Of a stretch of 64,000 nt of DNA, positions 1,921-63,536 are shown one piece after another. The translations under genes were made by a program, and so were the position numbers. The notes under the pieces are model-generated. The model ran no database searches. It had not been told where the DNA came from and saw nothing but the letters and a program-made list of their open reading frames with translations. The DNA is from a virus. Where the stretch lies: the IMG/VR virus record IMGVR_UViG_3300029887_000017; one strand, given 5' to 3'. The stretch's first letter is position 1, and every line of letters begins with the position of its first letter.

Positions 1921-1949
1921 CGTGAGCCCGGTTTCCCGGGCTCTTTTCA
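1921..1949 (+). terminator. intrinsic terminator
   Basis: GAGCCCGG-ttt-CCGGGCTC hairpin followed by T-run. Confidence 0.6.
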
Positions 1950-2144
1950 TATGGAAAGCAATATTCGGCAGATAAATCTATCATACTTATAATGTCCGGG
2001 AATACCGGACAGACCTTTCAAGCTTATGTGGCTTGTACAACTTTGTTACAAAAAATTTGTTTTCGCAGAACAGGACCGGAAGGAGCGCCGGTTCTGTTTT
2101 GTTGTACAGGAAAAGGGGCTGCTTGCATGCAGCTTTTTTCATAT

Positions 2145-2196
2145 GGAAAAATCATTCATTTTGTTAAATTCTGACATACTTTCCATATAAAAAGAA
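2145..2196 (+). promoter_or_regulatory. conserved palindromic promoter cassette (TTTTCATATGGAAA..CTGACATACT..TTCCATATAAAAAG)
   Basis: member of >40-copy motif family placed ~45 nt upstream of start codon. Confidence 0.5.
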
Positions 2197-2210
2197 GAAA
2201 GGAGAACAAA

Positions 2211-2522
2211 ATGAATATTGAAGAAACAAGGAGGAGCAAAGCTGCAAGATGCCGTGTCGATTTAAGGCAGATGTTTGACAAAGGGCGCTGCCGCCTTAAA
2301 TTTGGAGGCTGCATCAGGTATACAAAAGAAAATGGTGCTGATAGTTACGCTTTGTACAGGGATGACGATGCTGACGGCCTGCTGATAAGAGACGGCGAAC
2401 TGCTGGAGTTTGGCGGGTGGAAGACCACGGAGAATGGAACCGTATACACAGTTGGCACATCAGAAAGTGGAAAGCAGATTTATCTTACAGAAAATGAATA
2501 TGGCATGTTAATGCCATGCTAA
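2211..2522 (+). CDS. hypothetical protein (103 aa)
   Basis: ORF behind promoter cassette and aaggagaacaaaATG RBS. Confidence 0.6.
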   Translation: MNIEETRRSKAARCRVDLRQMFDKGRCRLKFGGCIRYTKENGADSYALYRDDDADGLLIRDGELLEFGGWKTTENGTVYTVGTSESGKQIYLTENEYGMLMPC

Positions 2523-2538
2523 AGAAAGGGTAAAAAAT

Positions 2539-3153
2539 ATGGATGATTTGAATATTAAAATCAATGATGATATTTCAAAAGATTTACTGAATATGAATCT
2601 AACGGATATGTTTTGTAAACACGTCATTAGACGCAATCCTGATGGTATACAGATTAAAGCAGGTAAATTATACATAGAATCTTGCAAAATTGGTTATAAA
2701 GTATGCAATTGGGGATTACATGTAGGACATGCCAGTGATATTCAATATCACATCAATTCTATCGTGCAGATGGAAAGGGATGGATATAATCCTGCAATCA
2801 GAGTTGTAATTTGCAAATATGATTTTTGCGATACACCTATTGTTTGGATAGATAATTTACACTCAGCTATTAAGTACATTAGAGAATATGGTAAAAATGT
2901 TAAATTAGGAGATATACCATTCTATGTAGTGGATATATCTGATTATGACCATCCATCCATTCATGGATATAATGGTTCTTTAAGAGAACGTTATGAGGAT
3001 ATTTTAGGAGCTGTATCATGTGCTTATAAAAGATTTAGAAGGTCTAATTCCAAAAAACTGATTGAAATCGGCTACACAGTGAAAGACTTTTTATATGACA
3101 ATCCTATGCTTTATACCGAACTGAATACACACTTGGATTTGATTAATAGATAA
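2539..3153 (+). CDS. hypothetical protein (204 aa)
   Basis: ORF, no recognisable domain. Confidence 0.55.
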   Translation: MDDLNIKINDDISKDLLNMNLTDMFCKHVIRRNPDGIQIKAGKLYIESCKIGYKVCNWGLHVGHASDIQYHINSIVQMERDGYNPAIRVVICKYDFCDTPIVWIDNLHSAIKYIREYGKNVKLGDIPFYVVDISDYDHPSIHGYNGSLRERYEDILGAVSCAYKRFRRSNSKKLIEIGYTVKDFLYDNPMLYTELNTHLDLINR

Positions 3154-3231
3154 AAATATTTATATGAGCAAAATAACGACGGGATGGTCCTGATGTTTGA
3201 AAGAGAAGAATAAGAGAATGGAGGAACAAAA

Positions 3232-3816
3232 ATGGAATATGTTTTGACTGAACCAGGCAGACAGAAAATTGCTGATTACATATTACAATGTGCAGCAAAG
3301 AGAAAGGAAATTCTGGATGCCGGGATTGATACAGCAGACGCAACAAAGCTGCCGACAGAAAAAGATATTCTGTCAGACTTGAATTACGGTGCCGGGGTTG
3401 ACGAAGACGGTGATTACTACAATTGCTGGGGAGTTACCGACAATTGTAATTCTGACTATCCGCTAGGACTTAAAGCAGGTGAGGATTTCGTAGAAGAAGA
3501 AACTCTGTTAAGAATAACAGAGCTAGAGGCAGCACTTGCCAATGAGGAATACGAGAACGAGGTGGAAGAGTGCTGTCTGGAAATTGAGCTGCAGTTTTTG
3601 CAGGGCAATAAGAATGCATATGATGAACCTTATGCATTCATAGGCACTGACAACGTGTCGTTCGATGTCATATACGAGGAAGAAAACGACAGGTATTCTG
3701 CTACGCTGTATGACAAGGATGGAAACCCGCAGATGCCGTATCTCAATGATAAGAACTTACATAAGCTTGTGGAACAGATTTTAGAAGATGGAGAAAAAGA
3801 CGATGGCAGAGATTAA
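3232..3816 (+). CDS. acidic hypothetical protein (194 aa)
   Basis: ORF behind aatggaggaacaaaaATG RBS; D/E-rich. Confidence 0.6.
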   Translation: MEYVLTEPGRQKIADYILQCAAKRKEILDAGIDTADATKLPTEKDILSDLNYGAGVDEDGDYYNCWGVTDNCNSDYPLGLKAGEDFVEEETLLRITELEAALANEEYENEVEECCLEIELQFLQGNKNAYDEPYAFIGTDNVSFDVIYEEENDRYSATLYDKDGNPQMPYLNDKNLHKLVEQILEDGEKDDGRD

Positions 3817-3996
3817 GAATATCAATATAAGCCAGTTCGCAGAGCAGTTTCAGAGATGATTTTGCTAAGAAACACAAAAATTTCATCAGCGAATTTGTAA
3901 AATTCAGAGGTGACTTTATTTCGAACGACAGGGAGGCAGCTGCTTTCATGTATGCGCTTGAGGAAGTAGCATAGAAACAAGAAAATATAAGTAAAA

Positions 3997-4029
3997 AGAA
4001 GAGCTGCATGATGCGGCTCTTTTTTTGCG
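3997..4029 (+). terminator. intrinsic terminator
   Basis: GAGCTGC..GCGGCTC hairpin plus TTTTTTT. Confidence 0.55.
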
Positions 4030-4093
4030 TCTAAGCGATGGTTTGTATGTTGAAAAGCGAATGATTTGCGCATGTAGCAACACTGATATTCGT

Positions 4094-4673
4094 ATCTACA
4101 TTAATATGCATCAGTAGACATTTTCCTTACAACTTCAATTCAAAATGATTAAAACAACAATAATATCTACTCCAGTAGACATTTTCCTTGTAGTTTCAAC
4201 ACATTGATGTACGATCTGCTCTTTTAGAATCTACACCAGTAGACATTCTGTTCGCAGTTTTAACATGTATTAGGTCTGGAGCTTTGGTTTCATCTTCATC
4301 AGTAGACATTTCTCTTACAGTTTCAACCAAACAACGAAAGGAGAAACGCATGATGAATCTACCCTAGTAGACATTTTTCCTTCGATATTATCTCCACAAA
4401 ATCTACGCTCGCAGACGTTCTCTCTCTGCAATATTAACATGAAAAATCTTTGCCACATCCTTGCCGGATCTACATCATTTATTCTGAAATGAATTACCGA
4501 AGAAACTCATTGCATCTACCCCAGTAGACATTTCGCCAACAGTTCAAATGAAGACAGCGCTGGACAATATTTCATATCTACCTCAGTAGACGTTTCCCTT
4601 TATGTTCTAACAGTATTGATTGGCGCTAAAGTGTTATATCTACACCAGTAGACATTCCACTTACAGTTTCAAT
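4094..4673 (-). CRISPR. CRISPR array A (type V-A, ~10 degenerate repeat units)
   Basis: units every 44-67 bp; minus-strand reading ends in ..AATGTCTACT-NNN-GTAGAT (Cas12a crRNA handle); distal units (4401, 4468) strongly degenerate. Confidence 0.7.
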
Positions 4674-4800
4674 CCTAACATTGTGCACCTGCACAATGTT
4701 TCACGGTTTAACTGTAATGTTTTTTATATATTGCGTTCTACTTCAAAAAATATTTTTCTCTACAGTATTAATTACGGATAGGACCTGTTTTTTTTTGAAA
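4674..4800 (-). promoter_or_regulatory. CRISPR leader copy 1 with perfect palindrome AACATTGTGCACCTGCACAATGTT (4677-4700)
   Basis: sequence CCTAACATTGTGCACCTGCACAA..TTTCACGG shared with 6195-6265 and 7028-7154, always on the promoter-proximal side of an array. Confidence 0.6.
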
Positions 4801-4807
4801 AACGAAA

Positions 4808-5542
4808 TTATTTGCCCACATACAACGGGAAATTAACTGTTTCTAATATATTTTTATATTTATCTCCATCCGTGTATAACGCAAATGTAGCATCTTTCCC
4901 ATTTTCATATTCTTCCCTTATAGTTGTAAGCGAAACTTCATCTTTATATTTTGCTACATCAAAAGGAGAACAATTGGTATCATACTTATTAAGATATGAA
5001 AGCATATCATCATCAATTATAATCGGACTATCAAACACTTTCTCAAAAGCTTTGCATAATGAATATAATTCTTCTTGAGAGAACGTTATGTAACATGTGG
5101 AAAAGAAAAACTCAAACAAAGATGGTTTATTAGTAACTCCATAACGCAGATTATCCAAAATTAATTTAATATAATCTTCTTTAGAAGATATAATATTTTT
5201 ATCCAAAGCATATTTAATCTCGTCCGCGGTAAGCGGAAGGTAGGTGTAATTATATACGGCCTTAATTTTATGTATAGTAAGCGGAATAAACGCTACTATA
5301 TTTATAATTAATACTATTGTACATAATGCAAGGACCAATACAATTGGGAAGGCTGCTGCTGCAACTAATCCGTTTATTATATCACTGCTACCTCCCATAA
5401 AATTAAATATTCCAGCTCTTCCTAATAATATAAACACAATCATATAAATTATAATAGAAGTTATTAAAATAGTTCCAAGGAATTCATTAACTAATGTACT
5501 CCAAAACGATTTTTTCTTATTCATGTTTTTAAGTTTATTCAT
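4808..5542 (-). CDS. membrane protein (2 N-terminal TM helices + ~170 aa cytoplasmic domain), nested between CRISPR arrays
   Basis: 244-aa ORF, AAGGAGG RBS 5545-5551 (minus) derived from a repeat remnant; same strand as cas12a and arrays. Confidence 0.7.
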   Translation of the reverse strand: MNKLKNMNKKKSFWSTLVNEFLGTILITSIIIYMIVFILLGRAGIFNFMGGSSDIINGLVAAAAFPIVLVLALCTIVLIINIVAFIPLTIHKIKAVYNYTYLPLTADEIKYALDKNIISSKEDYIKLILDNLRYGVTNKPSLFEFFFSTCYITFSQEELYSLCKAFEKVFDSPIIIDDDMLSYLNKYDTNCSPFDVAKYKDEVSLTTIREEYENGKDATFALYTDGDKYKNILETVNFPLYVGK

Positions 5543-5587
5543 ACCTCCTTACAGTTTCAAGTAAATATTGCTACCCGTGATCTACAC

Positions 5588-6194
5588 GTCTACCTCAGTA
5601 GACATTTTCTTTACAATTTCAACAAATAAAAATCATACTCTCTGTGAACAAATCTACCTCAGTAGACATTTCGCTCACAGTTTCAACATGCAAATGCTTG
5701 AGCTACATATGCAAATCTACTTTAGTAGACATTCCGCTCGCAGCTCCAACATAATTATTCAAATGGTTCATATACTGACAATCTACATAAGTAGACATTC
5801 TACTCATAGTTTAAATGATTCCACATTTACTTGATTCTTAATCTATATCAGTAGACATTCCGCTTACAGTTTCAAACAGTCTTTCAATCTCTGAGCCTAG
5901 TGCTATATCTACCTCAGTAGACATTTTTATTACAGTTTCAACATGTTTGTGGGCATTCGACAGAAAGTGATCTACGCAAGTAGACATTCCGCTTACAGTT
6001 TTAACATAGGAAAGGAAGGTATTCAAAATGATATCTACACCAGTAGACATTTTCCTTACAGCTTCAACACGCAAAGAACCATTCGTCTGCAACTCATCTA
6101 CACCAGTAGACATTCCGCTTACAGTATCAACCAAACATGAAGAATAGATGGTTAAAGGATCTACCTTAGTAGACATTCTGCTCACAGTATCAAT
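5588..6194 (-). CRISPR. CRISPR array B1 (10 repeat units, 36 nt, spacers 24-30 nt)
   Basis: units at 5588, 5652, 5715, 5781, 5841, 5907, 5970, 6033, 6096, 6159; partial repeat remnant 5551-5587. Confidence 0.8.
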
Positions 6195-6265
6195 CCTAAC
6201 ATTACGCACTTGTGCAACATTTCACGGCTGAGCTGTAGGCTTTTTATCATCATCTTATACTGTTG
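6195..6265 (-). promoter_or_regulatory. degenerate CRISPR leader copy between arrays B1 and B2
   Basis: CCTAACATTACGCACTTGTGCAACATTTCACGGCTGAGCTGTAGG resembles leaders at 4674 and 7028. Confidence 0.5.
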
Positions 6266-7027
6266 ATCTGATCTGTTTTAATAGATATTTCGCTAACAGC
6301 TTCAATTGAGTTATCTATATATCTATATCAGTAAATATTTTATTTGGTATGCTGGGAATAATCTACATCAGTAGACATTTTGCCTACAGTTTCAGCTTTA
6401 TTCAAATTAAAAAAATAAGAGAAAATCTACCTCAGTAGACATTTTCTTTATAATTTCAACTCACAGTGTCCATATGATTATCATAGTATCTACGCAAGTA
6501 GACATTCCGTTTACAGTTTCAACCTGAAACTCTTACAAGTCCCATTAATATCTACCCTAGTAGACATTCCGCTTACAGTTTCAACTTTTTGACATATTGC
6601 TGCCTCTGATTTAAATCTACCCTAGTAGACATTCCGCTTACAGTTTCAACATTATTACTGTGATTTTGATATGGAAATCTACCCTAGTAGACATTCCGCT
6701 TACAGTTTCAACAATGACTGTGATATCATCTTGACTATCATCTACCCTAGTAGACATTTCGCTTACAGTTTCGACTAGAGGATGTTTTTTCACCCATTGC
6801 AGATCTACCCCAGTAGACATTCCGCTTACAGTTTCAACCGTAATTGATATGTGTGTTAACGCATGATCTACCTTAGTAGACATTTCGCTCACAGTATCAA
6901 CAAAGTATGCAATCGAGTACATAGATGAAATCTACCTTAGTAGACATTTCGCTCACAGTATCAACAGCGAGCATTGTCATAATATATTTTTATCTACCTT
7001 AGTAGACATTTCGCTCACAGTATCAAC
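6266..7027 (-). CRISPR. CRISPR array B2 (13 units; consensus minus-strand repeat GTTGAAACTGTAAGCGGAATGTCTACTAGGGTAGAT)
   Basis: well-conserved 36-nt repeats at 6361, 6425, 6488, 6550, 6615, 6677, 6740, 6803, 6866, 6930, 6992; degenerate distal units at 6266, 6321; spacers 26-28 nt. Confidence 0.9.
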
Positions 7028-7154
7028 CCTAACATTGTGCACCTGCACAACATTTCACGGCTGAAACTGTAAGTTTTTACGTATTATGCCCTTAATTTGT
7101 TATCTTATACCATTGAACTGCAAGCATTTCTTTTTATTAAAGCTGCGGTCTGCA
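7028..7154 (-). promoter_or_regulatory. CRISPR leader (between cas12a stop and first repeat) with palindrome 7031-7054
   Basis: AT-rich 127 bp; shared leader sequence; candidate -10 CATAAT. Confidence 0.6.
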
Positions 7155-10100
7155 CTAACTATTCGTTTGCTGCCTCTTCTGCATAAAATTGAACCAGTCT
7201 TCATTGCTAAGTCTGCTAAATTTGAACTTCTCGCCCTCGGCCCAATTGTTCTTCACCTGAAGCACATTGTATAGGCCTTTCATCGCAATGCCATATGCAT
7301 CGTTAGCATCTGCTTCGACAGGAAGCGATTTGTCAGCGGCGTCCGTGTCAAAGAACTTTCCTGACGCGTTTAATATCGGAGATACAAACTTATCATATTC
7401 TCTGTCTTTCGATTCACATAAGCTGTTTCTCATCTGCACTGTGAGTTTGAACATCTCAAATATGTGAGAGGAGAGTGCATAGTCAATAATTTCCTGTTTG
7501 ATGTCATGACCATCTGCCCAGTTTATATCTGTGGCGGCAAGAGTTTTCTTGATTTCCTCTGTTATGTCGATAACGACTTCGCTAACGAACTTTCTGTTTT
7601 GGAACGTCTTTTTAACTCTGGTGCCGTAAGTGTATGCACACCATTTTGTTTTTGCACAGGTCTCGTATATCTCAAAATTGTCGTAATCAAACTCAAATGC
7701 AAACAGGTCTTTCTCGGCATCATATCTGATGCAGTCAAATCTGCCAATGAAATCCGTCATGGCTTTTTCAGATGATATATCCTTGAACTTGAATAAGGTT
7801 ACAAATCCTGTTGTCGGATCAACTCTTGATGTATATGCGGCTGGCACATAGAGAATGCATCCACACTGGCTTCCGACATTTTTAAGGCTTTCCGGAATGT
7901 ATGTAAGCTGATAACCATTGGCAATTCCGCCTGCTTCCAGAGGTTTTCTGTCCTTGAATGTCAGATAGTTGAGAGTCTTAATGAGGCTTGTCTCAAACTG
8001 CTGGTAAACCCCGCGCTCAATCTTTGAACGCTTTTCCTTAAACCTGCTGTTTAAGTCTTCCATGACAACAATACCATTGTATTTTATTACAAGCTCGGCA
8101 ACTTCATGAACTGCCTGTGACAAATAGCCTTTCTTTAAGTCAGCTATTTTTACACCCTGTTTCCAGTTCTGCCTTGCCAGTTTTCTCATGATTTCAACCT
8201 GCTTGAGCTTTGCCTGATAGTCCACATTGTTAATGATGTTAAGGGATTTCTGCTCAACAATGTTTCCGTCAGTATCAATTACTGATACATACAGCAAATT
8301 TCTCTCCCCACGGTCAATTCCAATGATGTAAGTGTCCTTTGTCTGAGCAATATACTTAAGAGCCATTTCGTTTACATTTACACGTCTGTTTTCCGCCTTG
8401 TAGTTTAGTGACACCGGCATGTTGATAAAGAACTCATCCTCTGTATATCTGCGGTCTTTTATGATGTCATAAGGGGCAGTGCGGTGGTCTACAATATCCT
8501 TGTACTTAAGCGCCTCTGCTGAAAGAGGTGTTCCTGAATTGTTGTAGTAGCCGTAAAGCTCCATGTAAACATCATCAGGCACGCATTTTCTGACGGTAAT
8601 AATGTTTCCATTTTCATCCATTTCCTGTGCGTTGTAGGTTTTACTGACAAGAATGGAACCTTTCTTGTGAACGACAGGAGTTTTTATGCTCTTTGGCCTG
8701 AAGAATACTTCCGTGCCGCCGCATAACTTGATAACAGGATCTGCAACATTTTCATCACTGAATAAACTGCGTAGAATAGCAGTGTGCTTACTTGGTTTTC
8801 CGAAGCTCTTTTCTGAAAAGTCTTTATTGTATATCTGAAACAGATACAGCTGGCCATTTTCCTGCAGACTGTCAATATCATCACTTCCAATGTATGTCCA
8901 GTTCATGTAATATCCCTGTTCGGCAACTTCCTTGTAGAACTCACCAATGTCATTGTAACTTTCGGTATCTGAGAACTTAAAATTAAAGCAGTCCCAGTCA
9001 GTATACAGTGCGAGACAGTGCTTAAAGTAATCAATCAGTTTGTGACAGTAGTCTATGTCAAAGTTTTTTGACGTCTTAAGATGTCTGCCTTTCTTGTAAT
9101 CAGAAAGCAGCTCATCTGTCAGTCCGTAAACCGGTACAGCCTTGCTTGAGCTTATAAACATGTGAGGCAGCATCTTGTTAGGTCCGGTTAAAAGAGAGTA
9201 GACCATTTTCTTGTAATCACCGTCCTGTATCGTATCATGTCCTTTGATAATACTTTTTGCAGGTTTGTTTTTGGCATTGAACACTCCAAGATAAAATTTG
9301 TCATCTTTTGCAAGAAGAATGGCATTGTTGGTGAATTCCTTGCTTTCACTCCAACCTGATGCAAATGAAGACGTGCCAAAATACAATCCGAACTTGTCTG
9401 TGTTGTACGGTTTCTTGGTTACGTAATTTCTTGTACGGTTGTATAAGGATACAATAGAATGGATCTCATCGTTTATATCCTCAAGTTCTGTGTAAAAATC
9501 CGTATCCTTGTCAACAGGCTCATCTGTCTTGAACTTTGCACACCAGCGAAAGATGTCCATAAACGGTTCAATTGCTTCCTTAAGAACAGCGATTTCAGTC
9601 TCATTTTCTGCGAGCGGAATGCCGGAATTCATAGTTAACGGATTTGCTTTGTAATCAGCGACAATATCTGAAATGCTTCTTATAAGCGACCTTGTGCTTG
9701 CAGCTTTGTCCGGACATAAGTTATACTTATCAACAAGTTTATCAATTTCACCAAGGCTTATTAATTCAGTGTTTTTAGCCATGGATGCAGCCTTTTTCTC
9801 TTTGGTCTTGCCTTTGCCCGGGAGAGTGTCAATGTAACTCATGGTAAGAGCAGTATTGATTACACTGAAATCCCTGTACAGTGTCTGGGATATATTTGTA
9901 AAGTGCTTCTTTGAAATGTATATCTTATCAAGGTCATAGCTATCAGCATTCTTACCGAGCATCTGCAGTCTTTCAATAACAGATTTGGTTCTGACATTGT
10001 TAAGAAAATCATTAACGGCAGCATATACATCTTCATCGCAATTGAATTTTGCAGGTACATCATACAGTGATTCTTCGATGCAGAGTATCTGCTTGTGAAG

Positions 10101-57193: not shown

Positions 57194-57294
57194 GATACTG
57201 TGCGGATAATATACCAAGAGTCTTGAACTTTCAAGGCTCTTTTTTTGTGCAAAGAAAAAATCATACTCTTAATATATTAAAACAGGAGGACGAA

Positions 57295-58656
57295 ATGATT
57301 AAATATAAACTATTTGACAAAACAAATTTAAAAGGCATTGCAATAGCAGGAGCGTTGTCATTGTCTGCCGCGTTCATGGCGGTTCCATCAGCATGCGTGT
57401 ATGCGGATACACCAGTTCAGTCGCAGACAGCAGATACAGACAGCAGTGAACCTTTAAGCGAGAATGAAAGCGAAAAAGATAACCCAGCGGCAGGGGATAT
57501 TGGTGATACACCCGGTTACAATTTGGAAAAGACGAAAAAGCAGTCTGTTGAGGAAAATGAAAATTCAACAAGACAGGACTCAGAGATAGATTTGTCAGCA
57601 AGGCCTTATCCAGCTGCAGACAACGTTATAAATAGCGATTCTTATTATAATCTTGGCGCGCTTACAAATTATGAACAGTATATCAATATGTCTTTTGACG
57701 TCGCTGAAAATGATGTTACACGTCTTCAGGTTATCTACAGCGGAAACTCTCCGGAATTTGCTTTTTTTAATCCGGAAAAGCAGATTTATGCAGGATCGAA
57801 CAAGACTTACGAAAATGGATTTTCCATTGTAAAAAAAACACGCAGTGATTACATGTCAATAGGTCAGAGTAACTACAATGTAGATGTGTATTATATCGAA
57901 TATCCAAAGACGGGTGGCTCCTGGATAGCGCAGATGTCTGCTGTAGGGGTAAAAGATGTTATATGTTCAAAAACAAAACTGCCTAAGAACTGGCAAAATT
58001 TAAGTGCAAGCAAAGAGGGCGCGGTTGATATGGACGGTCCAACATTTTACTCGCTCGCGGATTCATCTAACATCGTTACACTTACCGATTCATCCAGCAG
58101 CTTTGATGCAAATGGGGAATCAGCAGATAAAAAGATAAAGGCAGTAAAAGAAGAAGACAAGAAAGATTACAGCTCACTTATAATGTGTGGAACTTTTCTG
58201 GCAATAATGGTAGTCGGTTTTATTGTATTTAAAGTAAAGTCGAATAAAAAAGCCAAGGCAGCAGAAGAAAAGACCAAAAAAGAAAAAGAACTTGCGGAAT
58301 ATAAAGAATCAAGAAAGAGGACGACGGAACAGATTGAAGAAGATCTTACAAAAGAATTTGAAAAAGAAGGCGAAGACTGGTCTGATGTGCAGATTGAGTG
58401 GGATACAAAGCCGACAGTTCTTGAAATGCCTGAAGAGAAAAAGGAATCCAAGGCTATCAAAAAGCGTGTAAGCCAGATTAAAGAGGTGAATGCGGAGTAT
58501 ACAAACACTGTAATACGCGATGCACAGAAGGCGCAGTCAAAGAAAGATGAGGAAGAAAGAAGTAAAGTTCCTTCATATGATGAGTCGGACAGCGTGATTT
58601 TAAACCCTGTTATTCCAAATGTCCCGGACAACGGGAATGATGATGACCTTTTTTAA
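57295..58656 (+). CDS. secreted/membrane-anchored surface protein (453 aa)
   Basis: signal peptide, C-terminal TM helix followed by K/E-rich tail. Confidence 0.6.
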   Translation: MIKYKLFDKTNLKGIAIAGALSLSAAFMAVPSACVYADTPVQSQTADTDSSEPLSENESEKDNPAAGDIGDTPGYNLEKTKKQSVEENENSTRQDSEIDLSARPYPAADNVINSDSYYNLGALTNYEQYINMSFDVAENDVTRLQVIYSGNSPEFAFFNPEKQIYAGSNKTYENGFSIVKKTRSDYMSIGQSNYNVDVYYIEYPKTGGSWIAQMSAVGVKDVICSKTKLPKNWQNLSASKEGAVDMDGPTFYSLADSSNIVTLTDSSSSFDANGESADKKIKAVKEEDKKDYSSLIMCGTFLAIMVVGFIVFKVKSNKKAKAAEEKTKKEKELAEYKESRKRTTEQIEEDLTKEFEKEGEDWSDVQIEWDTKPTVLEMPEEKKESKAIKKRVSQIKEVNAEYTNTVIRDAQKAQSKKDEEERSKVPSYDESDSVILNPVIPNVPDNGNDDDLF

Positions 58657-58761
58657 AAAAATAATCGAATGCAGCTCCGTAAGGAGCTGTATTTTTGCAT
58701 TTCAAAAAAATATCATACTCTCTATGTTTGAAGATACAAAGAGAAAAGGAGAAAGAACAAA

Positions 58762-59676
58762 ATGAGGAACACGACAATTACAAAAGCAGTCGTTGCAGGA
58801 ATGCTTGTAGTGGCGATGACAACAACAGTATTTACAGGAGCGCAGACATCTGTTTATGCAGAAGAACAGCAGCAGATGACAACAAACGATGAAATAGCCC
58901 TTCTTGAAGCAAAAAAAGCGGCTATGGAAGCTGACATGGCTGTGTATCCAAACTGTAAAGGACTGGCTGATGCACATGACAGAGTCGCTGCGGATATTAA
59001 AGAAATGAAACAATATAAAAGTGCTTCAAAAAAGGCTCCGTCAAAAAATAACTTTCTGACAGCAGGCGTAACCGCAGCCCTTGGGTCTTCAGATATGTAT
59101 GATGGAAAGATAAACAGTATATATGAAACAGACAAAGACATTGCCGAGCGTTCTTTTTACGGCTATTACAATGTAGACGCACAGAGAATACAGGCTGTCA
59201 ATACAGCTGTTTCATCTCAGGGCAGAATCAAGTATGTCTGGGGTGGAAAACCATCAAGCCCTGACTGGCAGACATCATGGGATGAAAAAACATCAGGTCT
59301 TGACTGTTCCGGATTCATAAGCTTTGTATACTGGAACACAACAGGTGTTCACAATGAAGGTCTTGAATCCACATATGCAATCGCAAGGCATGCATCCCCG
59401 ATAAGCGAGGATGAATTACAGCCGGGAGACCTTGGCATGCTAAATGACAGGGGGACATATTGGACAGCAGGAAATACTGCGTATGATACAAGAGAAGCCG
59501 CAGATGCTGCTGTCGCACAATCCGGTGAAGCCGTCATACAACATACCGGCCATGTAGGAATCTACGTAGGCCTCGATGCAGACGGCAACAAACTGTTCTG
59601 CCACTGCAAGGGCGGAAGTGCAAGAACTGTAGTTGTAGACAACTTCAATTTCAGATATTTCTACAGAATGTTTTAG
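58762..59676 (+). CDS. secreted NlpC/P60 family peptidoglycan peptidase (304 aa)
   Basis: signal peptide; GLDCSGF catalytic Cys motif and downstream GHVGIYVG His. Confidence 0.8.
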   Translation: MRNTTITKAVVAGMLVVAMTTTVFTGAQTSVYAEEQQQMTTNDEIALLEAKKAAMEADMAVYPNCKGLADAHDRVAADIKEMKQYKSASKKAPSKNNFLTAGVTAALGSSDMYDGKINSIYETDKDIAERSFYGYYNVDAQRIQAVNTAVSSQGRIKYVWGGKPSSPDWQTSWDEKTSGLDCSGFISFVYWNTTGVHNEGLESTYAIARHASPISEDELQPGDLGMLNDRGTYWTAGNTAYDTREAADAAVAQSGEAVIQHTGHVGIYVGLDADGNKLFCHCKGGSARTVVVDNFNFRYFYRMF

Positions 59677-59802
59677 TATCTGAAGGGTTTGTGTAAAAAG
59701 AGCTATCCATGAGGAGGCTCTTTTTTCATATAGAAAGCTAACGGACAGAACAAAATCTATCATACTTATAGTACCTAAAAAAGAAAACAAGGAGGAAACA
59801 AA

Positions 59803-60381
59803 ATGAAAGATCTAAAAAAAGACGTGCTGGCAACAGGCCAGTTCGCGGAATTCTACACACTCAATACATTCGTAAGAGTGTATACCGCATTTGGCATTGA
59901 CAAGGTGAAGATGTCATTTGTAACAAAAGGACAGCATGGGCAGGGCTGTGACGTGTATGTTGACACAGATGTTTTTGACATCCTCTGTGACGACATTTTA
60001 AGCGGGGACTTAAGAAAGCTCATTGCCGCGTCAAAGCCTAATGACAAGGGTTACTATCCTGTAGTTTGGGAACATGTAACAGGAAAGGACGGATCAAAGA
60101 AGGTCAATATTGCCCGCGGCATGAAAAAGCCAGTTGTAATCACCGGTTACGATGGTACACAAAAGAAGTATATCAGAGTAACAGTTGAAAAATACGCTGA
60201 GCTTCGCATAATGGCAAAATGGTGGAAGAGAGTGTCAGCTCCTTACTATCAAAAGCTTGCCATGATAGGATACGAGGCGAAGAAAGCCTTTGTTCCGAAG
60301 TACAATCCGGACGATCTTGAGGAGCCAGAGAATATGTCTGACAATGAGCCTGACCTGCCACCAGTTCCGCCAATGGCGTAA
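59803..60381 (+). CDS. hypothetical protein (192 aa)
   Basis: behind promoter cassette 59705-59785. Confidence 0.55.
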   Translation: MKDLKKDVLATGQFAEFYTLNTFVRVYTAFGIDKVKMSFVTKGQHGQGCDVYVDTDVFDILCDDILSGDLRKLIAASKPNDKGYYPVVWEHVTGKDGSKKVNIARGMKKPVVITGYDGTQKKYIRVTVEKYAELRIMAKWWKRVSAPYYQKLAMIGYEAKKAFVPKYNPDDLEEPENMSDNEPDLPPVPPMA

Positions 60382-60466
60382 GTAGCACGTTAAAAAAGAG
60401 CATTCCTGAAAAAGGAGTGCTTTTTTCGTTGAAAAAATCCTGAAAAACAAAAATCATACTTATTAC

Positions 60467-60934
60467 ATGGAAAGATTTAACAATGAAAGAAGCGCGAATT
60501 ACAGATGCAATTTTTTTAAGGCAAATAAAGGACTGCGCGGTCACAGAAAACATTATCACTGTTCATACTGCGGAAGAATAAAGAAAAAAGACGATATTAC
60601 CGTTGATCATTTGATACCCGTAAACAAGGTATTAAAAGGATGTCATAAAAGGTTCTGGAAAATGGTCTTAAGATTAAATGGAATAAACGACATTAACGAC
60701 ACGAGAAACCTTGTTCCCGCGTGCAGAAAATGCAATTCAAGAAAAGGAGCAAACACTGGCATATGGATTATCAGAGGACTTATTGGAAGACATTTTGGTT
60801 TCTGGTGTATTGAAAAACCAGTAAAGTGGTTATTGATAGTGATTTTTGCATACTGGCTGTATACAAATCCGAAAGAGCTTACAGATGGAATCAACTATGT
60901 TTTCTCGGGTATTCTTAACAGCCTGCTGCGCTGA
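60467..60934 (+). CDS. HNH endonuclease (155 aa), apparently leaderless
   Basis: HYHCSYCG..VDHLIP..NLVPACRKCNSRKG; ATG only ~10 nt after CATACT core, no SD. Confidence 0.6.
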   Translation: MERFNNERSANYRCNFFKANKGLRGHRKHYHCSYCGRIKKKDDITVDHLIPVNKVLKGCHKRFWKMVLRLNGINDINDTRNLVPACRKCNSRKGANTGIWIIRGLIGRHFGFWCIEKPVKWLLIVIFAYWLYTNPKELTDGINYVFSGILNSLLR

Positions 60935-61229
60935 GAAACGCAGAAGAAAAGCGCCTGTGTGTTTGGTAATTCTGTTTTTATTTCCAATAAGGATGAATTT
61001 ATTGCAAATATTAGTTCTTATGTATGTTATAAAAAATCTAATAATATTTATGATTCATGGTTAATGATGCTTCACAACTTAAATGAGACAATGGATGGAC
61101 TATTCAGATACGGAGCAAAGGATACAGATGAAAATGTTATATTTCTAAAGAATATATTAGTCTTTTTATCTTACATAAGCATTTACGAAGATGAAAAGTC
61201 ATGGAGAAATTTGTTATTGTAATGATATT

Positions 61230-61337
61230 GTGGCGGTGGCTCAGTCTGGTAGTAGCACTCCTGTTCCTGTATGGCATCGTAAAATCATGTAAGGAACTAT
61301 GCAGGTGTTGTCGGAGGTTCAAATCCTTCTCGCAACA
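61230..61337 (+). other. tRNA-like element (D-arm and T-arm consensus, atypical 108-nt length)
   Basis: GTGGCGG-TG-GCTCAGTCTGGTAGTAGC .. GGAGGTTCAAATCCTTC-TCGCAAC-A-CC; 6/7 acceptor pairing; ~35 extra nt in the anticodon/variable region. Confidence 0.35.
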
Positions 61338-61368
61338 CCTATAATGATTTAAAACTAGGAGGTATATT

Positions 61369-61683
61369 ATGGTTTCACCAAGTTATATGTGTTTATTAAG
61401 CTTAGTCGATAATAAAACCAAAATAATGGGAAATATCGAGTTAGCAAATAAAATAAAAGAAATGACAAAAATATACTTGAAGCAAGGGAAAGACTTATAC
61501 GAAGCACAAGAAAAACTTAAAATCTTATTACTGAAAGAATTAGGTTTAGAATGGTATGAAAAAAGTGGAGAAGCTGTTAATTTCGTTATTGAAAATGAAT
61601 ATGCTCATGCAGAAAGAACATCTTTACCAGCGTTTGATATGAAACAATACGAGAAGGATATGAAACAAGGTGTTATGTATTAA
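61369..61683 (+). CDS. hypothetical protein (104 aa), paralog of 46147-46461
   Basis: aaactaggaggtatattATG; shared EWYEKSGEAVNFVIENEY block. Confidence 0.55.
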   Translation: MVSPSYMCLLSLVDNKTKIMGNIELANKIKEMTKIYLKQGKDLYEAQEKLKILLLKELGLEWYEKSGEAVNFVIENEYAHAERTSLPAFDMKQYEKDMKQGVMY

Positions 61684-61785
61684 AATAGAATATACGATGA
61701 AGAACGTGCAAATTAACAGCACTCGCAGGAGAAAATAACTGCATGAGAAAATACACAAAATTAGAGTTATAGAAAGGATATATAA

Positions 61786-62259
61786 ATGATTCTAACAGAA
61801 CATGAACAGGTAATTATTAACAATATGAGACACCCATCAATTCGCACAGTAACGGCGAGCAAATCGTATAAAGATTTATCCGATGAAGAGCTTACTTCAC
61901 TAATTGGCAAAATAGATGACTATGTGAATGAAATTGGCGAAACACAGAGAGCTTTCGGTAATTATGATGAATTTTACGTATTAGAATTTGATTCGATTAA
62001 GGCTCGTCTAGTAGATGAATGTCAACGCAGAAAAATTATGCTTAGAATGCAAGGCGATAAATTTGACGTTTATCGAAAAGAATATAATGAAATAGTAAAT
62101 AGCGCAATGAATCATCCTGTTGGTAATATGATGTATAAAATTCGTCAAATTAAAAGAATTCTTATGGAAGAGTTTCCAAGAGAAGCAAACGATGAAAAAG
62201 CAGAACTTGTTGCAAATAGATTATATGACCAAATTATGTACGAAGATAAGGATGTTTAA
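61786..62259 (+). CDS. hypothetical protein (157 aa)
   Basis: tagaaaggatatataaATG. Confidence 0.55.
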   Translation: MILTEHEQVIINNMRHPSIRTVTASKSYKDLSDEELTSLIGKIDDYVNEIGETQRAFGNYDEFYVLEFDSIKARLVDECQRRKIMLRMQGDKFDVYRKEYNEIVNSAMNHPVGNMMYKIRQIKRILMEEFPREANDEKAELVANRLYDQIMYEDKDV

Positions 62260-62340
62260 TTTGAACAGATACAATACTATAAAATATAAAACCACTATAC
62301 GAATTCCCAAAATAAATGCATACCCTTAATGACATTGCGT

Positions 62341-62392
62341 AAAAACAACCCTCCCTTTTCTCTTTAAAAGAGTTCTGGGAGGGTTATCTTTT
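62341..62392. terminator. bidirectional terminator
   Basis: AACCCTCCC..GGGAGGGTT long hairpin. Confidence 0.55.
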
Positions 62393-62457
62393 ATTTACCC
62401 CGTGCTTAACTTAATGACATTGGTGTGTAAACAGGCGCTTTTTATTATGGCTATTTT

Positions 62458-62640
62458 TTAATGGATGGCATTGCATGCTATCCAGAAAACGAGAAGTAAT
62501 GCGACGAACGAGCCCCATGCCATTACTTCCTCAAAAGTAATCTTTTGATGCCAGAACAATTTGTCCTGAACATCCCAAAGTGCCGCAAGCAGGTTAAGAC
62601 CCGCCCTCTTTATTATTTTTGCCATTTTAATTTCCTCCAT
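62458..62640 (-). CDS. small membrane protein (60 aa)
   Basis: minus-strand ORF behind reverse promoter core at 62660-62675. Confidence 0.45.
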   Translation of the reverse strand: MEEIKMAKIIKRAGLNLLAALWDVQDKLFWHQKITFEEVMAWGSFVALLLVFWIACNAIH

Positions 62641-62886
62641 TTGTCTTTTCTACTTTTCTTACCGTAAGTATGATAGATTCCAAAAAAACGGATCTGCGAC
62701 TATATAAAAAACAGCATTATACACAAAAAAAGAACTTCTATATAAACAAACTTTATATAGAAAGGTCTTTTTTTGTGCGTTTTCATTTCAGGTAAAAAAT
62801 AAATCATACTATGGACGGAAATAGGAAAATACAAAAGAAAGGAATTTGATTTCTTCTTTATATAGAAGAATACATGGGGAATCATT

Positions 62887-63384
62887 ATGACAGAACAGCA
62901 GATTACAGACATGATGATGGATAAAATTGCTGCCTTTGAGGTTATCGCTTCAAAAATACAGACAGGAAATGAGGACGAAGCCAGAACAATGGCAATCAGC
63001 ACATATACACTGTTTGATGATATTGAGAAGTTTATAGAGGAGAACAAAGATTTTGATGCAGAGTACTGCGCAAACTGTTTTATCGAAAATGGCAATTTCG
63101 TTGACAGAAGCAGCGATGTAGTCATTGTGAAAAGCAAAGAAGATTACTATCTGAAAAAGACAGAAATGTGTGTTGAAAAGACAAGATCTCTTTATGGGCT
63201 TTTAATTAGCATTGCAAACACATTGAAAAACAAAAACACAATGGGTAAGAGCTGTCTCAAAGACCGCATGAAGTACAATGCAGCCCTTGACGCCCTTGCG
63301 GAGAGACTTATGCAGGAGATGAGTGAGACACATCTGGGCTACATATCTGACGCTATGTTTAAGTTAATGCTAAAAAAATCATAA
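62887..63384 (+). CDS. hypothetical protein (165 aa)
   Basis: ORF. Confidence 0.5.
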   Translation: MTEQQITDMMMDKIAAFEVIASKIQTGNEDEARTMAISTYTLFDDIEKFIEENKDFDAEYCANCFIENGNFVDRSSDVVIVKSKEDYYLKKTEMCVEKTRSLYGLLISIANTLKNKNTMGKSCLKDRMKYNAALDALAERLMQEMSETHLGYISDAMFKLMLKKS

Positions 63385-63536
63385 AGATTTTCGCATTTGT
63401 TAAAAGTATTAGAAAAAAAAATCATACTTACGGCGGTTAAAGCGACTGTGCTTTATCAAATAAAAACTTCCGCCATTACGGGAGATAAAAGTAACTTATC
63501 AACCATGTGCACAAAGAAGAAAGGACAAAAAGAAAA

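Follow-up and report, generated by a model that had tools for sequence, protein, structure and literature searches.

CATACT promoter-like elements of a large plasmid-like element and a candidate sigma factor for their recognition

Results

CATACT sites in the window

The window (the whole stretch of 64,000 nt analysed here) carries on its minus strand a cas12a gene (7155–10940; 1261 aa), whose product matches the Cpf1 REC1, REC2, PI, RuvC and NUC domains (E values from 1e-29 to 6e-88), and on both strands a short motif built around the hexamer CATACT. Using a position-weight matrix on aligned sites, we found 45 sites fitting AAAAWCTAW-CATACT-N6-purine in the window and none in shuffled sequence. 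The motif search proposed in the original prediction, which had counted more than 40 conserved copies, thus gave a strong excess. A relaxed matrix (threshold 10) retrieved 51 matches in the window versus 3 in shuffles. All the cores listed previously (36 on the plus strand and 5 on the minus strand) are present within 1 nt, those given as 13847, 36538 and 54458 each being 1 nt off; sites 783(+), 31766(-) and 53416(-) were absent from that list.

On the plus strand of the window, CATACT occurs 48 times against about 15 predicted from base composition, and 40 of these 48 occurrences are promoter-like sites. The hexamer is invariant among the 45 matrix sites, and the single convincing core variant in the window is AATACT at 14292. 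Numbered from the C of CATACT, conservation is unbroken from -9 to +18; a purine occupies +12, 7 nt downstream of the hexamer, in 81 of 81 non-redundant sites, and a T occupies +11 in 65 of them. No -35 hexamer was found at normal spacing from CATACT, which agrees with the earlier view that these promoter-like elements lie outside the canonical sigma-70 -35/-10 layout. A generic host repeat had been named as the alternative; the motif is not one, the 23-mer having a single match, within a coding sequence, in the genomes of 185,579 species. The motif at 5634(+) was rejected as a promoter: it sits within a CRISPR spacer (5624–5651, minus strand) whose own sequence, aaataaaaatCATACTctctgtgaaca, forms a class II motif.

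Arms and classes of sites

An upstream arm, TTATATRGAAAG, is present in 16 of the 45 sites, each time 22–24 nt ahead of CATACT, and an inverted downstream arm (up to 1 mismatch) in nine; when up to 1 mismatch is allowed, TATATGGAAAG is present 25 times versus 2.0 expected. The outer arms had been described as reverse complements, and TATATGGAAAG and CTTTCCATATA do match exactly as such. The 60-bp palindromic cassette does not hold as the general unit: both arms, with the upstream one at fixed spacing, were found in 2 of 45 sites versus 3.2 expected under independence. The arm-to-core gap, previously put at about 25–26 nt, is 23 nt in 21 of 24 cases. The site first taken as the example, 34141–34203(+), is atypical, its core 34183 carrying both arms with a gap of 27 instead of 23 nt, 36–42 nt ahead of ORF 34219/34225–34710. 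About one third of the promoters, hereafter class I, have the extra TTATATRGAAAG 22–24 nt upstream of CATACT. In the strongest class II promoters the same 11-mer, inverted, overlaps the predicted start site.

In what follows, each core is given by the position of its first base, with the span of the site in brackets, on the plus strand unless marked otherwise. Among predicted class I promoters, core 783 (748–795; TTATATGGAAAG-N23-CATACT) lies 25 nt from ORF 808–1404, core 2175 (2139–2187; both arms) 36 nt from ORF 2211–2522, core 13214 (13180–13226; N22) 93 nt from ORF 13307–13588, core 26854 (26819–26866) 44 nt from the HNH-domain ORF 26898–27986, core 36947 (36913–36959; N22, both arms) 40 nt from ORF 36987–37253 and core 39730 (39695–39742) 41 nt from ORF 39771–40757. 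Cores 54191 (54156–54203) and 59761 (59726–59773) are each 42 nt from their ORFs (54233–54421 and 59803–60381), and core 53238 (53226–53273, minus strand) is 49 nt from ORF 53189–52662. The presence of the motif ahead of cas12a was confirmed, with core 10992 (10980–11027, minus strand) and the start at 10940(-) 52 nt apart. Longer leaders follow core 46585 (46550–46597; 121 nt, ORF 46706–47362), core 54459 (54424–54471; about 370 nt, receiver-domain gene 54831–55310) and core 1982 (1947–1994), which stands behind the terminator 1924–1943 and precedes a small ORF or ncRNA; core 47494 (47459–47506), behind the terminator 47409–47454, precedes a small ORF and then the Band7 gene 47648–48694. Core 14230 (14218–14265, minus strand) falls within a direct repeat of about 145 nt and may drive a repeated, non-coding-looking transcript of about 100 nt; core 15297 (15285–15332, minus strand), in the second repeat copy, points antisense into the BspA-LRR gene 14338–15150. 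This gene is itself preceded, at 46 nt, by the probable variant promoter ttttctatAATACT (14280–14304; first base 14292).

Predicted class II promoters close to an ORF comprise cores 15430 (15421–15442; 40 nt to 15470–15652), 16522 (16513–16534; 42 nt to 16564–17271), 24109 (24100–24121; 35 nt to 24144–24944), 26162 (26153–26174; 41 nt to 26203–26775), 36098 (36089–36110; 39 nt to 36137–36457), 36539 (36530–36551; 48 nt to 36587–36880; top matrix score, 38.2), 38694 (38685–38706; 48 nt to 38742–39653), 51387 (51378–51399; 75 nt to 51462–51632), 51909 (51900–51921; 39 nt to a 46-aa ORF) and, on the minus strand, 62672 (62660–62681; 47 nt to 62625–62458). Core 22403 (22394–22415; 45 nt to 22448–23257) is divergent from the sigma-A-type promoter of an HTH gene. 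The inverted arm accompanies cores 18041 (18032–18053; CTTTCCATATA; 43 nt to 18084–18917), 31837 (31828–31849; 42 nt to 31879–32160), 50904 (50895–50916; 40 nt to 50944–51213) and 28037 (28028–28049; 39 nt to 28076–28264), the last behind the terminator 27992–28008. Terminators also precede cores 17345 (17336–17357; terminator 17287–17308; 39 nt to 17384–17752), 57262 (57253–57274; terminator 57216–57241; 33 nt to 57295–58656), 58714 (58705–58726; terminator 58667–58694; 48 nt to the NlpC/P60 gene 58762–59676) and, directly, 13848 (13839–13860; terminator 13798–13824), for which, as for core 13735 (13726–13747), the downstream ORF is not obvious. Core 11081 (11072–11093), with the lowest matrix score (12.7), has a 165-nt leader before ORF 11246–12025. 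The remaining class II sites are promoter-like: core 31766 (31754–31775, minus strand), back to back with 31837 and lacking a clear ORF; core 53416 (53404–53425, minus strand), back to back with core 53441 (53432–53453; long leader); core 60455 (60446–60467), with no Shine-Dalgarno-led ORF within 400 nt by our criteria; core 62805 (62796–62817; 184-nt leader); and core 63423 (63414–63435), whose structured leader precedes ORF 63537–63761.

Placement relative to genes and terminators

Altogether, 28 of the 45 sites, including that of cas12a, lie 25–60 nt upstream of an ORF preceded by a Shine-Dalgarno sequence; an ORF of this kind in the same orientation follows within 400 nt at 38 of 45 sites. 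A hairpin plus T-run ends at most 70 nt upstream at 22–24 of 45 sites versus 2.6 at random positions; the association with terminators claimed earlier is thus a true enrichment, but it concerns about half of the sites and not most of them. Nor does the motif precede nearly every gene, the 45 sites comparing with about 90–100 ORF calls, i.e. about one promoter per two genes; site-free multi-gene runs include about 28.1–31.7 kb and 39.8–46.5 kb. Canonical sigma-70-type sites were not in excess over shuffles (78 vs 70.8, 53 vs 55.1 and 71 vs 66.5), hence they do not provide an alternative promoter supply.

The element and its sigma gene

Contig MT835474 shares 99.5% identity with the window across 18.4 kb, and its backbone holds 28 further motif sites, ahead of partition, VirB4-like, helicase and other operons. 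In the roughly 126 kb of the element examined, we identified VirB4/TraG-like and VirB11-like ATPases, a ParM-like partition protein, helicases and a topoisomerase-like protein (the latter by reading its sequence and not by Pfam). The original prediction spoke of a phage; no virion genes were detectable in these 126 kb, which carry genes of conjugation and partition type instead, and the part beyond the window looks like a conjugative plasmid. The element is best explained as a large plasmid-like mobile element (at least about 126 kb) whose host is a gut Firmicute, probably a Lachnospiraceae. A phage-type RNA polymerase had been suggested as reader of the promoters, a proposal that found no support: no RNA polymerase gene, phage-type included, was found in the same 126 kb.

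The search for a sigma gene in the rest of the element was successful. A divergent sigma-70-family gene (311 aa; MT835474:78293–79228) lies outside the window, to which it is tied through the near-identical contigs MT835474 and UMHE01058847.1 (L011 in our set). Its product matches TIGR02937 (sigma70-ECF superfamily) across regions 2–4 (E=1.3e-9), below the curated cut-off (37.9 vs 42.9 bits), and Pfam r4_2 at E=0.004, likewise below the cut-off; its PDB profile matches are exclusively to sigma region 2 or region 4. Among 40 members of the clade, Pfam Sigma70_r2 was detected in 28, r4 in 12, r4_2 in 8 and r3 in 8. The AlphaFold model was poor (pLDDT 59.5), and Foldseek with this model gave no match at E<=1e-3. 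No paralogue was found in the 126 kb. CATACT stands 125 nt upstream of the gene, TTGAAT-17-TAAAAT stands further upstream, and a divergent HTH_3 (XRE-type repressor) gene adjoins it.

The motif co-occurs with this sigma clade in other contigs, as assessed on contigs carrying homologues of 51% down to about 24% identity. Four distant homologues on unrelated contigs, whose flanks have otherwise diverged, are preceded by the CATACT motif: in L009 the sigma operon begins 35 nt downstream of CATACT, L024 has TTATATAGAAAA-N23-CATACT plus AAAAAAACATACT, L025 has TATATGGAAAA-N22-CATACT and L026 has AAAAAAAATCATACT. Beside more distant sigmas, L027 shows CATTCT three times in the same context, and L029 shows cttCCATAnT 38–47 nt before 7 of the 9 plus-strand starts listed and, at 63 nt, before one more, with C, A and T fixed at positions 1–3 and T at position 6. 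No CATACT motif was seen at the more distant relatives L031 and L032, which speaks against the link.

Discussion

CATACT behaves as a -10 element, a reading we base on the A fixed at position 2, the T fixed at position 6 and the purine 7 nt downstream. Sigma-70-family factors flip -11A and -7T out of the helix, to which these two bases would correspond; transcription would then start at the invariant purine, and the role of an extended -10 or of a UP-like element would fall to the A-rich or TCTAW sequence immediately before CATACT. A host alternative sigma may read these promoters; their -10 is similar to that of sporulation sigmas, which is of CATA type. A dedicated sigma factor, as contemplated earlier, is the best explanation, the sigma gene of the element and four of its homologues on unrelated contigs being preceded by the same motif. 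Judging from sequence, the most likely reader of the promoters is the host core RNA polymerase with the element's own divergent sigma-70-family factor, and we lean towards an element-wide regulon driven by this factor through the CATACT promoters.

The HTH gene 21824–22297, previously put forward as a binder of the motif, is not an obvious one: the gene has a canonical sigma-A-type promoter to itself, and its 8-bp inverted-repeat operator is a separate one. A TTATATRGAAAG-binding factor is plausible, though for part of the promoters only: in class I this arm spans about -47 to -36 from the predicted start and would serve either a candidate activator or a sigma region 4 of unusually long reach, the 23-nt gap being too long for an ordinary region 4.

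The sigma gene appears to start from a host sigma-A-type promoter. We infer a cascade in which it would first be expressed from this promoter, beside the divergent XRE-type repressor gene, and then be amplified from its own CATACT promoter, creating positive feedback. Own sigma factors are known for some phages and one Bacillus plasmid; the promoter set described here would be of the same kind as those of the phage sigmas and of SigN of the Bacillus plasmid pBS32.

The CATACT core

Sites were aligned with the hexamer CATACT as anchor, taking in its intergenic, A/T-preceded copies, and are designated hereafter by the coordinate of the C of CATACT. The alignment revealed a conserved block without gaps, extending from -9 to +18 from this C and reading AAAA-W-(C/A)-T-A-W-CATACT-(T/C)-N3-A-T-R-(T)-AAAAA. 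The motif search suggested with the original prediction was carried out using a position-weight matrix built from the aligned sites, which retrieved 45 matches in the window against none in shuffled sequence. All 41 cores listed in that prediction exist, three of them being displaced by 1 nt, and the list has to be completed with 783(+), 31766(-) and 53416(-).

A second matrix with heavy pseudocounts was used to tolerate hexamer variants. The sole further convincing site that it added was ttttctatAATACT at 14292, located 46 nt upstream of gene 14338, and CATACT can thus be considered as effectively invariant. It is unchanged in 45/45 sites of the window and in 81/81 sites of a non-redundant set that combines the window, the rest of MT835474 (a longer, near-identical contig) and other loci. 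In this larger set, a purine is found 7 nt after the hexamer (+12) in all 81 sites, and T is found just before it (+11) in 65. No -35 hexamer was detected 16-19 nt upstream of CATACT, columns -23 to -18 carrying approximately 0.1 bit; the sole upstream element lies 23 nt from CATACT and is present in 24 of the 81 sites. Downstream of CATACT, an A/T-rich hexamer varies among sites in both position and sequence, and takes the -10-like form ATATAA in many class II sites (i.e. those devoid of the upstream arm that defines class I, 22-24 nt before CATACT). Canonical sites of the type TTGACA-N16-18-TATAAT were not enriched over shuffles (78 vs 70.8, 53 vs 55.1 and 71 vs 66.5), hence no alternative supply of promoters is visible in the window.

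We argue that CATACT acts as the -10 element of a sigma-70-family holoenzyme. The A at position 2 (-11) and the T at position 6 (-7) of a -10 element are the bases flipped into the pockets of sigma region 2. Both are invariant here, the purine located 7 nt further on stands at the usual distance of a transcription start, and in relatives only positions 4 and 5 vary, which together point to this assignment. An ECF-like reading of the sites, with GGAAAG as -35 and TCTAW as -10 after 17-18 nt, was rejected: TCTAW varies (second position C in 28 sites and A in 17) and is missing from many class II sites, in contrast to the constant CATACT, and it is from CATACT, not from TCTAW, that the invariant purine stands at the 7 nt expected of a start. 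A literature search for a CATACT promoter returned nothing relevant, and the lead of a conserved intergenic motif on Butyrivibrio megaplasmids was abandoned, their genome paper making no mention of one.

CATACT occurs 79 times on both strands of the window (48 plus, 31 minus), for approximately 15 plus-strand and 27 minus-strand occurrences expected from base composition by our own arithmetic. Once the promoter-like sites are set aside, 8 copies are left on the plus (gene-sense) strand, i.e. fewer than the ~15 expected, and 26 on the minus strand against ~27. The plus-strand deficit may reflect the avoidance of spurious internal promoters, the numbers being small (Poisson P ~0.04).

Two optional arms and two classes of sites

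The arms TATATGGAAAG and CTTTCCATATA are exact reverse complements, as had been predicted. The 11-mer TATATGGAAAG is over-represented in the window (25 copies vs 2.0 expected) and was found in both orientations, at fixed positions. As upstream element, TTATATRGAAAG is present in 24/81 sites, always 22-24 nt before CATACT and exactly 23 nt in 21 of them, and the block continues after it with G-C-n-A-T. The inverted arm, allowing up to one mismatch, was found in 14/81 sites (9/45 in the window), where it overlaps the stretch between the hexamer end and the putative start. Both arms are carried by 2175 and 36947 alone, while independence predicts 3.2 in the window. The arms are therefore two separate optional additions to the core and not a unit, so that the palindromic cassette initially described holds for the relation between the arms and not for their association, which is no more frequent than chance (2/45). 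The stretch 34141-34203, cited at the time as an example, is itself atypical, with an upstream arm 27 nt from the core.

With respect to the inferred start, TTATATRGAAAG lies at about -47 to -36. This position would be beyond the ordinary contact of region 4 and would correspond to that where class II activators bind. The two classes also differ in what follows them: class II sites are typically continued at once by a leader rich in A and by a strong Shine-Dalgarno sequence, and several class I sites are followed by a long or structured leader, or by no ORF. The reverse complement of the class I upstream region reads (t)AT(g/t/a)GCTTTCCATATAA, to be compared with CATACTTTCCATATAA in the forward promoter. 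This reverse-complement relation between upstream element and start region in the strongest promoters is real and is explained by none of the five readings weighed in this work; it could represent a decayed inverted promoter, or a site recognised by a protein whichever way round it lies.

One of these readings is that CATACT and its flanks form the operator of an element-encoded global regulator (KorA/KorB-like), the arms being half-sites and host sigma-A using the downstream ATATAA or TATAGT. The presence of the 11-mer in both orientations at fixed positions, the ATATAA that follows CATACT in many class II sites and the existence in the window of an HTH gene with its own sigma-A promoter are in line with it. 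We nevertheless consider it quite improbable, as the downstream A/T hexamer shifts in place and sequence while CATACT remains constant, and neither a TTGACA-like -35 nor a TG extension is found at the right distance from this A/T hexamer. Moreover, the only universal positions are T +11 and purine +12, i.e. a start-site signature, the arms co-occur no more than by chance, and the palindromic operator of the HTH gene differs.

This HTH gene (21824-22297, minus strand) has the only near-perfect sigma-A-type promoter of the window, TTGATA-17-TATAAT with a TG, at 22363-22335 on the minus strand. In the intergenic region 22298-22447, an 8-bp inverted repeat, AACTATCA-N10-TGATAGTT (22355-22380), overlaps the -35 of the gene and is located 23-48 nt upstream of the divergent CATACT promoter 22403.

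Placement relative to genes and terminators

A start codon with a GGAGG-like Shine-Dalgarno sequence is located 25-60 nt downstream of 28 of the 45 sites; 10 further sites have a Shine-Dalgarno-led ORF 61-400 nt downstream, and none was found for 7. Co-orientation with the downstream Shine-Dalgarno-led ORF was thus observed in 38/45 sites. The 10992(-) core lies 52 nt upstream of a 1261-aa ORF that contains all Cpf1/Cas12a domains. Site density is approximately one per 1.4 kb, or one per two ORF calls, and the description of a cassette before nearly every gene was overstated. In 22-24 of the 45 sites, a hairpin with a T-run ends no more than 70 nt upstream, compared with 2.6 for random positions, terminator-like sites being 2-3 times commoner in the window than in shuffles. 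The expectation that most cassettes follow a terminator is borne out as a strong excess over random, and applies to about half of the sites.

Three Cas12a-type CRISPR arrays were found at 4100-7078 on the minus strand (~7035-6355, 6202-5582 and 4681-4100). Their 36-nt repeats, with a period of ~63 nt, are unusually degenerate (60-90% mutual identity), and a conserved leader of ~45 nt precedes each array (4682-4724, 6203-6245 and 7036-7078). The CATACT match 5634(+) lies within a spacer of these arrays (5624-5651), whose minus strand TTGTTCACAGAGAGTATGATTTTTATTT corresponds to the class II promoter sequence aaataaaaatCATACTctctgtgaaca. An exact search of IMG/VR gave no protospacer for it. The sequence suggests that a related, competing element supplied this spacer from one of its promoters, and hints that related elements target each other's promoters.

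The motif outside the element

The commonest 23-mer, TCTAWCATACTTTCCATATAAAA, has several copies in the window and a single match among the genomes of 185,579 species (596 Gb). The match falls antisense within a cpaE-like CDS of a Lachnospiraceae MAG, in what looks like a chromosomal flagellar/Tad region, and may well be due to chance, since ~0.14 chance matches are estimated for such a pattern there. A generic host intergenic repeat, which had been named as the finding that would count against the original prediction, is not what emerged from this search, which covered the 23-mer in species-representative genomes. Additionally, no intergenic site was found in the 8 kb of L005, a Lachnospiraceae chromosome-like contig. 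The motif does not behave as a REP/MITE-like element either, given that both arms are joined in only 2/45 sites, that 38/45 sites are co-oriented with an ORF and that representative genomes contain no intergenic copy of the 23-mer.

Several copies share identical stretches of 40-60 nt including the leader, e.g. CATACTTTCCATATAAAAAAGAAAAAAGGAGG, a ~145-nt direct repeat with a class I promoter flanks one gene, and related contigs differ by gene-sized insertions and deletions. These features would fit a selfish intergenic repeat (REP/MITE-like or PeSL-like cassette) spread by recombination, not by regulatory selection. As an explanation for the motif, we regard such a repeat as very unlikely: most copies share the core only, in unrelated flanks, sites are co-oriented with downstream genes, and the hexamer is kept where flanks and proteins have diverged to ~24% identity. 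Homology breakpoints were not significantly close to cores either (9/39 within 150 nt of a core vs 7.0 +/- 2.4 at random, P ~0.26), and the idea of a recombination hot-spot finds no clear support in them. Spread as a selfish repeat and function as a promoter are not mutually exclusive.

The ~145-nt direct repeats (14123-14266 and 15193-15333, 80-97% identical) flank a BspA-LRR gene, 14338-15150. In each, a class I promoter on the minus strand precedes ~100 nt that look non-coding and include a GC-rich hairpin, the right-hand copy being directed antisense into the gene. The unit was also found at positions 3667 and 11877 of the IMG/VR contig L001, and its transcript could be a small or antisense RNA. 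A longer internal repeat of ~530 bp (15652-16177 and 53469-53997, ~95% identity) holds an identical 44-aa ORF in both copies (15970-16104 and 53787-53921). Paralogous pairs are also present in the window, i.e. 44915-45577 and 46706-47362, 46147-46461 and 61369-61683, and two YopX genes.

Among other IMG/VR contigs, L021 represents a piece of an element of this family, and L017 and L018 contain single pattern matches that look like chance. One complete class I unit, TTATATAGAAAGCCAT-N-TTCTGACATACT, followed by a Shine-Dalgarno sequence and ATG, was found at 5672-5760 of IMGVR_UViG_3300029770_000272 (L013), an otherwise unrelated 27-kb viral contig with no other sites; it could be a moved cassette or a distant relative.

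A large plasmid-like element

The window is 95-99% identical to MT835533 and MT835474, two unannotated "Bacteriophage sp." scaffolds from human faeces, and also matches a 92-kb IMG/VR contig. MT835474 overlaps window positions 45575-64000 at 99.5% identity and extends 62 kb beyond. This extension encodes a T2SSE/VirB11-like ATPase, a TraG/TraC/VirB4-like ATPase, an actin-like (ALP/ParM) partition protein, RecD/Dda-like helicases with an SbcC-like protein, and MoxR and VWA proteins. From the reading of the sequences, a pair of IS200/IS605 transposases, a topoisomerase and a protein of 1386 aa whose end is NlpC/P60-like were also recognised there; the 1386-aa protein had no PHROG match. Genes of the window include cas12a with its three CRISPR arrays, an NAD-dependent ligase, a SpoVK-like AAA ATPase, BspA-type LRR proteins, YopX, HNH, Band7 and NlpC/P60 proteins, and many small ORFs; no Rfam match at gathering thresholds and no tRNA (tRNA scan) were found in the window.

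No capsid, portal, tail protein or clear terminase was detected in the window or in MT835474 21-83 kb, and a weak PHROG "terminase" match falls on the VirB4-like ATPase. Since the extension holds VirB4-, VirB11- and ParM-like genes while virion genes went undetected, the element is regarded as large, plasmid-like and probably conjugative, rather than as a phage. The "Bacteriophage sp." labels of its GenBank relatives are unverified, the gene content of MT835474 over 21-83 kb being plasmid- or conjugation-like. The host is probably a member of the Lachnospiraceae or a related Firmicute, an assignment based on the strength of the GGAGG sites, the type of Cas12a and the one GTDB match.

Beyond the window, the matrix identified 28 further sites in MT835474, ahead of partition, helicase, VirB4-like, MoxR/VWA and other operons. 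They are wider apart than in the window because genes form operons in this region.

The promoters might alternatively be read by an element-encoded RNA polymerase, of phage-type single-subunit or otherwise non-canonical nature, in the manner of T7, N4 or jumbo phages. An invariant hexamer, ~27 bp of unbroken conservation and the lack of a -35 do recall single-subunit polymerase promoters, and the element, which is not closed, has been seen in part only. Against this, no RNA polymerase family match was obtained with Pfam, NCBIfam and PHROGs in the window or in MT835474 21-83 kb, a partial scan for the latter (some ORFs of at least 130 aa lay outside it, among them, for Pfam, the 1386-, 946-, 815-, 756- and 609-aa proteins, and five of the ten large proteins compared with PHROGs had no match). 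A sigma-70-family gene is present instead, and the positions that stay fixed in relatives are those of a sigma -10. The dedicated RNA polymerase initially envisaged is thus without a candidate gene in the regions scanned, and we give this explanation very little weight.

A divergent sigma factor and its putative promoters across relatives

The other candidate of the original prediction, i.e. a dedicated sigma factor, has a counterpart: MT835474, 99.5% identical to the window where they overlap, encodes a divergent sigma-70-family protein of 311 aa (78293-79228). It matches TIGR02937 over regions 2-4 (E=1.3e-9, below the curated cut-off), with weaker matches to FliA/WhiG and SigB/F/G models (SigF/G and FliA, E 1e-4 to 5e-4). 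A profile of its five closest relatives matched only sigma factors in the PDB, through region 2 and region 4 separately (E 0.003-0.05). An exhaustive profile search retrieved 172 distant relatives; of 40 that were aligned, 28 match Pfam Sigma70_r2, 12 r4, 8 r4_2 and 8 r3. The AlphaFold2 model is of low confidence (pLDDT 59.5), and the top Foldseek matches obtained with it are mostly sigma factors, none at E<=1e-3. No paralogue was found among the ORFs called in the window and MT835474. By tblastn, the gene had no match in 72,556 plasmid records and matched only MT835474 itself in 50,697 phage records; a scan of IMG/VR gave no relatives, and a metagenome scan identical copies only.

A CATACT is located 125 nt upstream of the sigma start, with a short conserved ORF between them, and TTGAAT-17-TAAAAT lies further upstream. 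An HTH_3 (XRE-type) gene is divergently transcribed from the sigma gene. The short ORF (~40-63 aa) is always found 5' of the sigma gene and overlaps its start, at 78175-78295 in MT835474, 2842-2982 in L009, 9919-10044 in L010, 1179-1370 in L028 and 9816-10004 in L029. In the closest relatives its product contains ...AFQKA..K(V/I)NS(N/D)PLLKEAK. Candidate roles for it are those of a leader peptide, of a translationally coupled partner or of a co-factor.

Contigs encoding increasingly distant homologues of this sigma were compared, a small sample made mostly of short contigs. In L009 (sigma at 51% identity), aaaaatagCATACTcttgATAT lies 35 nt before the small ORF and sigma, and a second CATACT lies 54 nt before the divergent neighbour, the flanks being otherwise unalignable. 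In L024 (~24% identity), TTATATAGAAAA-N23-CATACT and AAAAAAACATACT were found upstream of sigma, and AAAAAACATACT past a terminator, ahead of the next gene; L025 (~25%) contains TATATGGAAAA-N22-CATACT, and L026 (~24%) contains AAAAAAAATCATACTTGTATAG. L027, whose sigma is more distant, has no CATACT but three copies of CATTCT in that same context, e.g. AAAAAAATCATTCTATCCAT. L029, still more distant and carrying nucleotide-metabolism and replication genes, has a cttCCATAnT motif (CATACT three times, CATTCT once, CATAAT and CATATT twice each) before 8 of the 9 plus-strand starts printed, seven at 38-47 nt and one at 63 nt. No such motif was found in L031 and L032, the most distant of the homologues compared. 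The hexamer therefore drifts as the sigma diverges, with variation confined to positions 4-5 and with C, A and T (positions 1-3) and T (position 6) retained. Given the motif in L009 and L024-L026 and its variants in L027 and L029, the motif and the phased upstream element are traits of the sigma-clade lineage. This covariation is the strongest non-experimental evidence that sigma and promoters belong together.

We favour, as the most probable of the readings considered, a mechanism in which the element-encoded sigma would direct the host core polymerase to CATACT promoters over the whole element, with a separate factor reading the optional site at -47 to -36. A bolder version, which we put forward only tentatively and hold to be doubtful, is that of an orthogonal transcription: the housekeeping sigma would essentially not see the conjugation-like backbone, the partition genes, cas12a and over 100 small cargo genes, all of which would be jointly switched on by one element sigma of a previously unannotated clade, placed behind an XRE-type repressor with positive feedback, a second factor reading TTATATRGAAAG either way and sorting the promoter classes.

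The sites could instead be read by a host sigma of the Lachnospiraceae, of the sporulation type or another alternative one, the element sigma having a narrower regulon. CATACT shares 5/6 positions with the sigma-E -10 of B. subtilis (CATACA-T), its first four bases being also the CATA of sigma-K and sigma-G promoters, the distant relatives of the element sigma in L031 and L032 come without the motif, and the link between sigma and motif is drawn from sequence. We judge this reading rather unlikely, as columns -23 to -18 show no -35 conserved at the sigma-E/K distance, the motif is kept just 5' of the sigma operon of four diverged elements, and divergence of the sigma is accompanied by changes in the hexamer (CATTCT, CCATAnT). 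The rarity of the 23-mer in genomes, where its one match falls in a CDS, and the lack of an intergenic site in L005 also speak against a host sigma. CATACT as a sigma-E/K -10 proper was rejected: it resembles one, and no cognate -35 (ATA.. or AC) is conserved at 14-18 nt.

Significance and comparison with known systems

A mobile-element sigma with a private promoter set is already known from T4, SPO1 and pBS32, and the advance is one of scale, consensus and lineage, not of kind. The sigma clade is new, being unannotated and absent from curated phage and plasmid collections at BLAST sensitivity, as are the consensus (an invariant CATACT without -35) and the phased upstream element kept in very distant relatives. 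The scale also appears new, with at least 70 promoters seemingly serving the whole element, including cas12a. If the favoured mechanism is true, a whole-plasmid transcription system apart from that of the host would exist in uncultured human-gut Firmicutes, in which one sigma of an unannotated clade, with a strict and short promoter, would serve at least 70 transcription units, a Cas12a defence locus among them. Such a system would account for the way in which the ~150 mostly unknown genes of a very large element can be silenced or switched on as a block. Promoters of the element family would become predictable from sequence, which would help to annotate small genes and non-coding RNAs, and the compact sigma-promoter pair might serve as an orthogonal expression tool in Clostridia.

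In T4-type phages, PeSLs are likewise units of terminator and promoter that bracket many small accessory genes and create many separate transcription units. They rely on early promoters read by host sigma-70 and have been proposed as agents of gene shuffling, whereas breakpoints show no significant enrichment at the cassettes described here. The KorA/KorB system of IncP plasmids similarly brings a short operator, at fixed positions, to many promoters of a conjugative plasmid, and is a possible analogue for TTATATRGAAAG. Kor operators, however, are palindromes bound by known repressors at sigma-70 promoters, while TTATATRGAAAG is asymmetric and the core promoter of the element non-canonical.

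The -10 of the sporulation sigma-E/K/G group begins with CATA (CATACA-T, CATA---TA), and C at -12 is unusual for sigma-A and typical of this group. These promoters need a -35 at 14-18 nt, whereas CATACT sites have none conserved there; position 6 of CATACT is invariantly T, not A, and the element sigma is element-borne and only distantly similar. With phage sigmas (T4 gp55; SPO1 gp28 and gp33/34), the element would share a mobile-element sigma that sends the host core polymerase to uniform promoters, and T4 late promoters are an extended -10 (TATAAATA) without -35. T4 gp55, however, is region-2-only while the element sigma keeps region 4, and the element differs in having no detected virion genes and no early, middle and late classes seen besides classes I and II.

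The plasmid pBS32 of Bacillus subtilis encodes SigN (ZpdN), whose regulon is confined to the plasmid (PMC6751061). The sigN gene has two SigA-dependent promoters, one strong and LexA-repressed and the other weak and constitutive, as well as a promoter read by SigN itself, i.e. a positive feedback (PMC6751061). SigN promoters carry TTTACGTTT at -35 and GATATAA at -10 (PMC6751061). At the sequence level, the region upstream of the element's sigma shows the same layout. Unlike pBS32, the element has an invariant CATACT and no -35, and its sigma, without a tblastn match among the plasmid records searched, is not a close relative of SigN. It also has far more putative promoters, at least 70 in ~126 kb, which cover both backbone and cargo.
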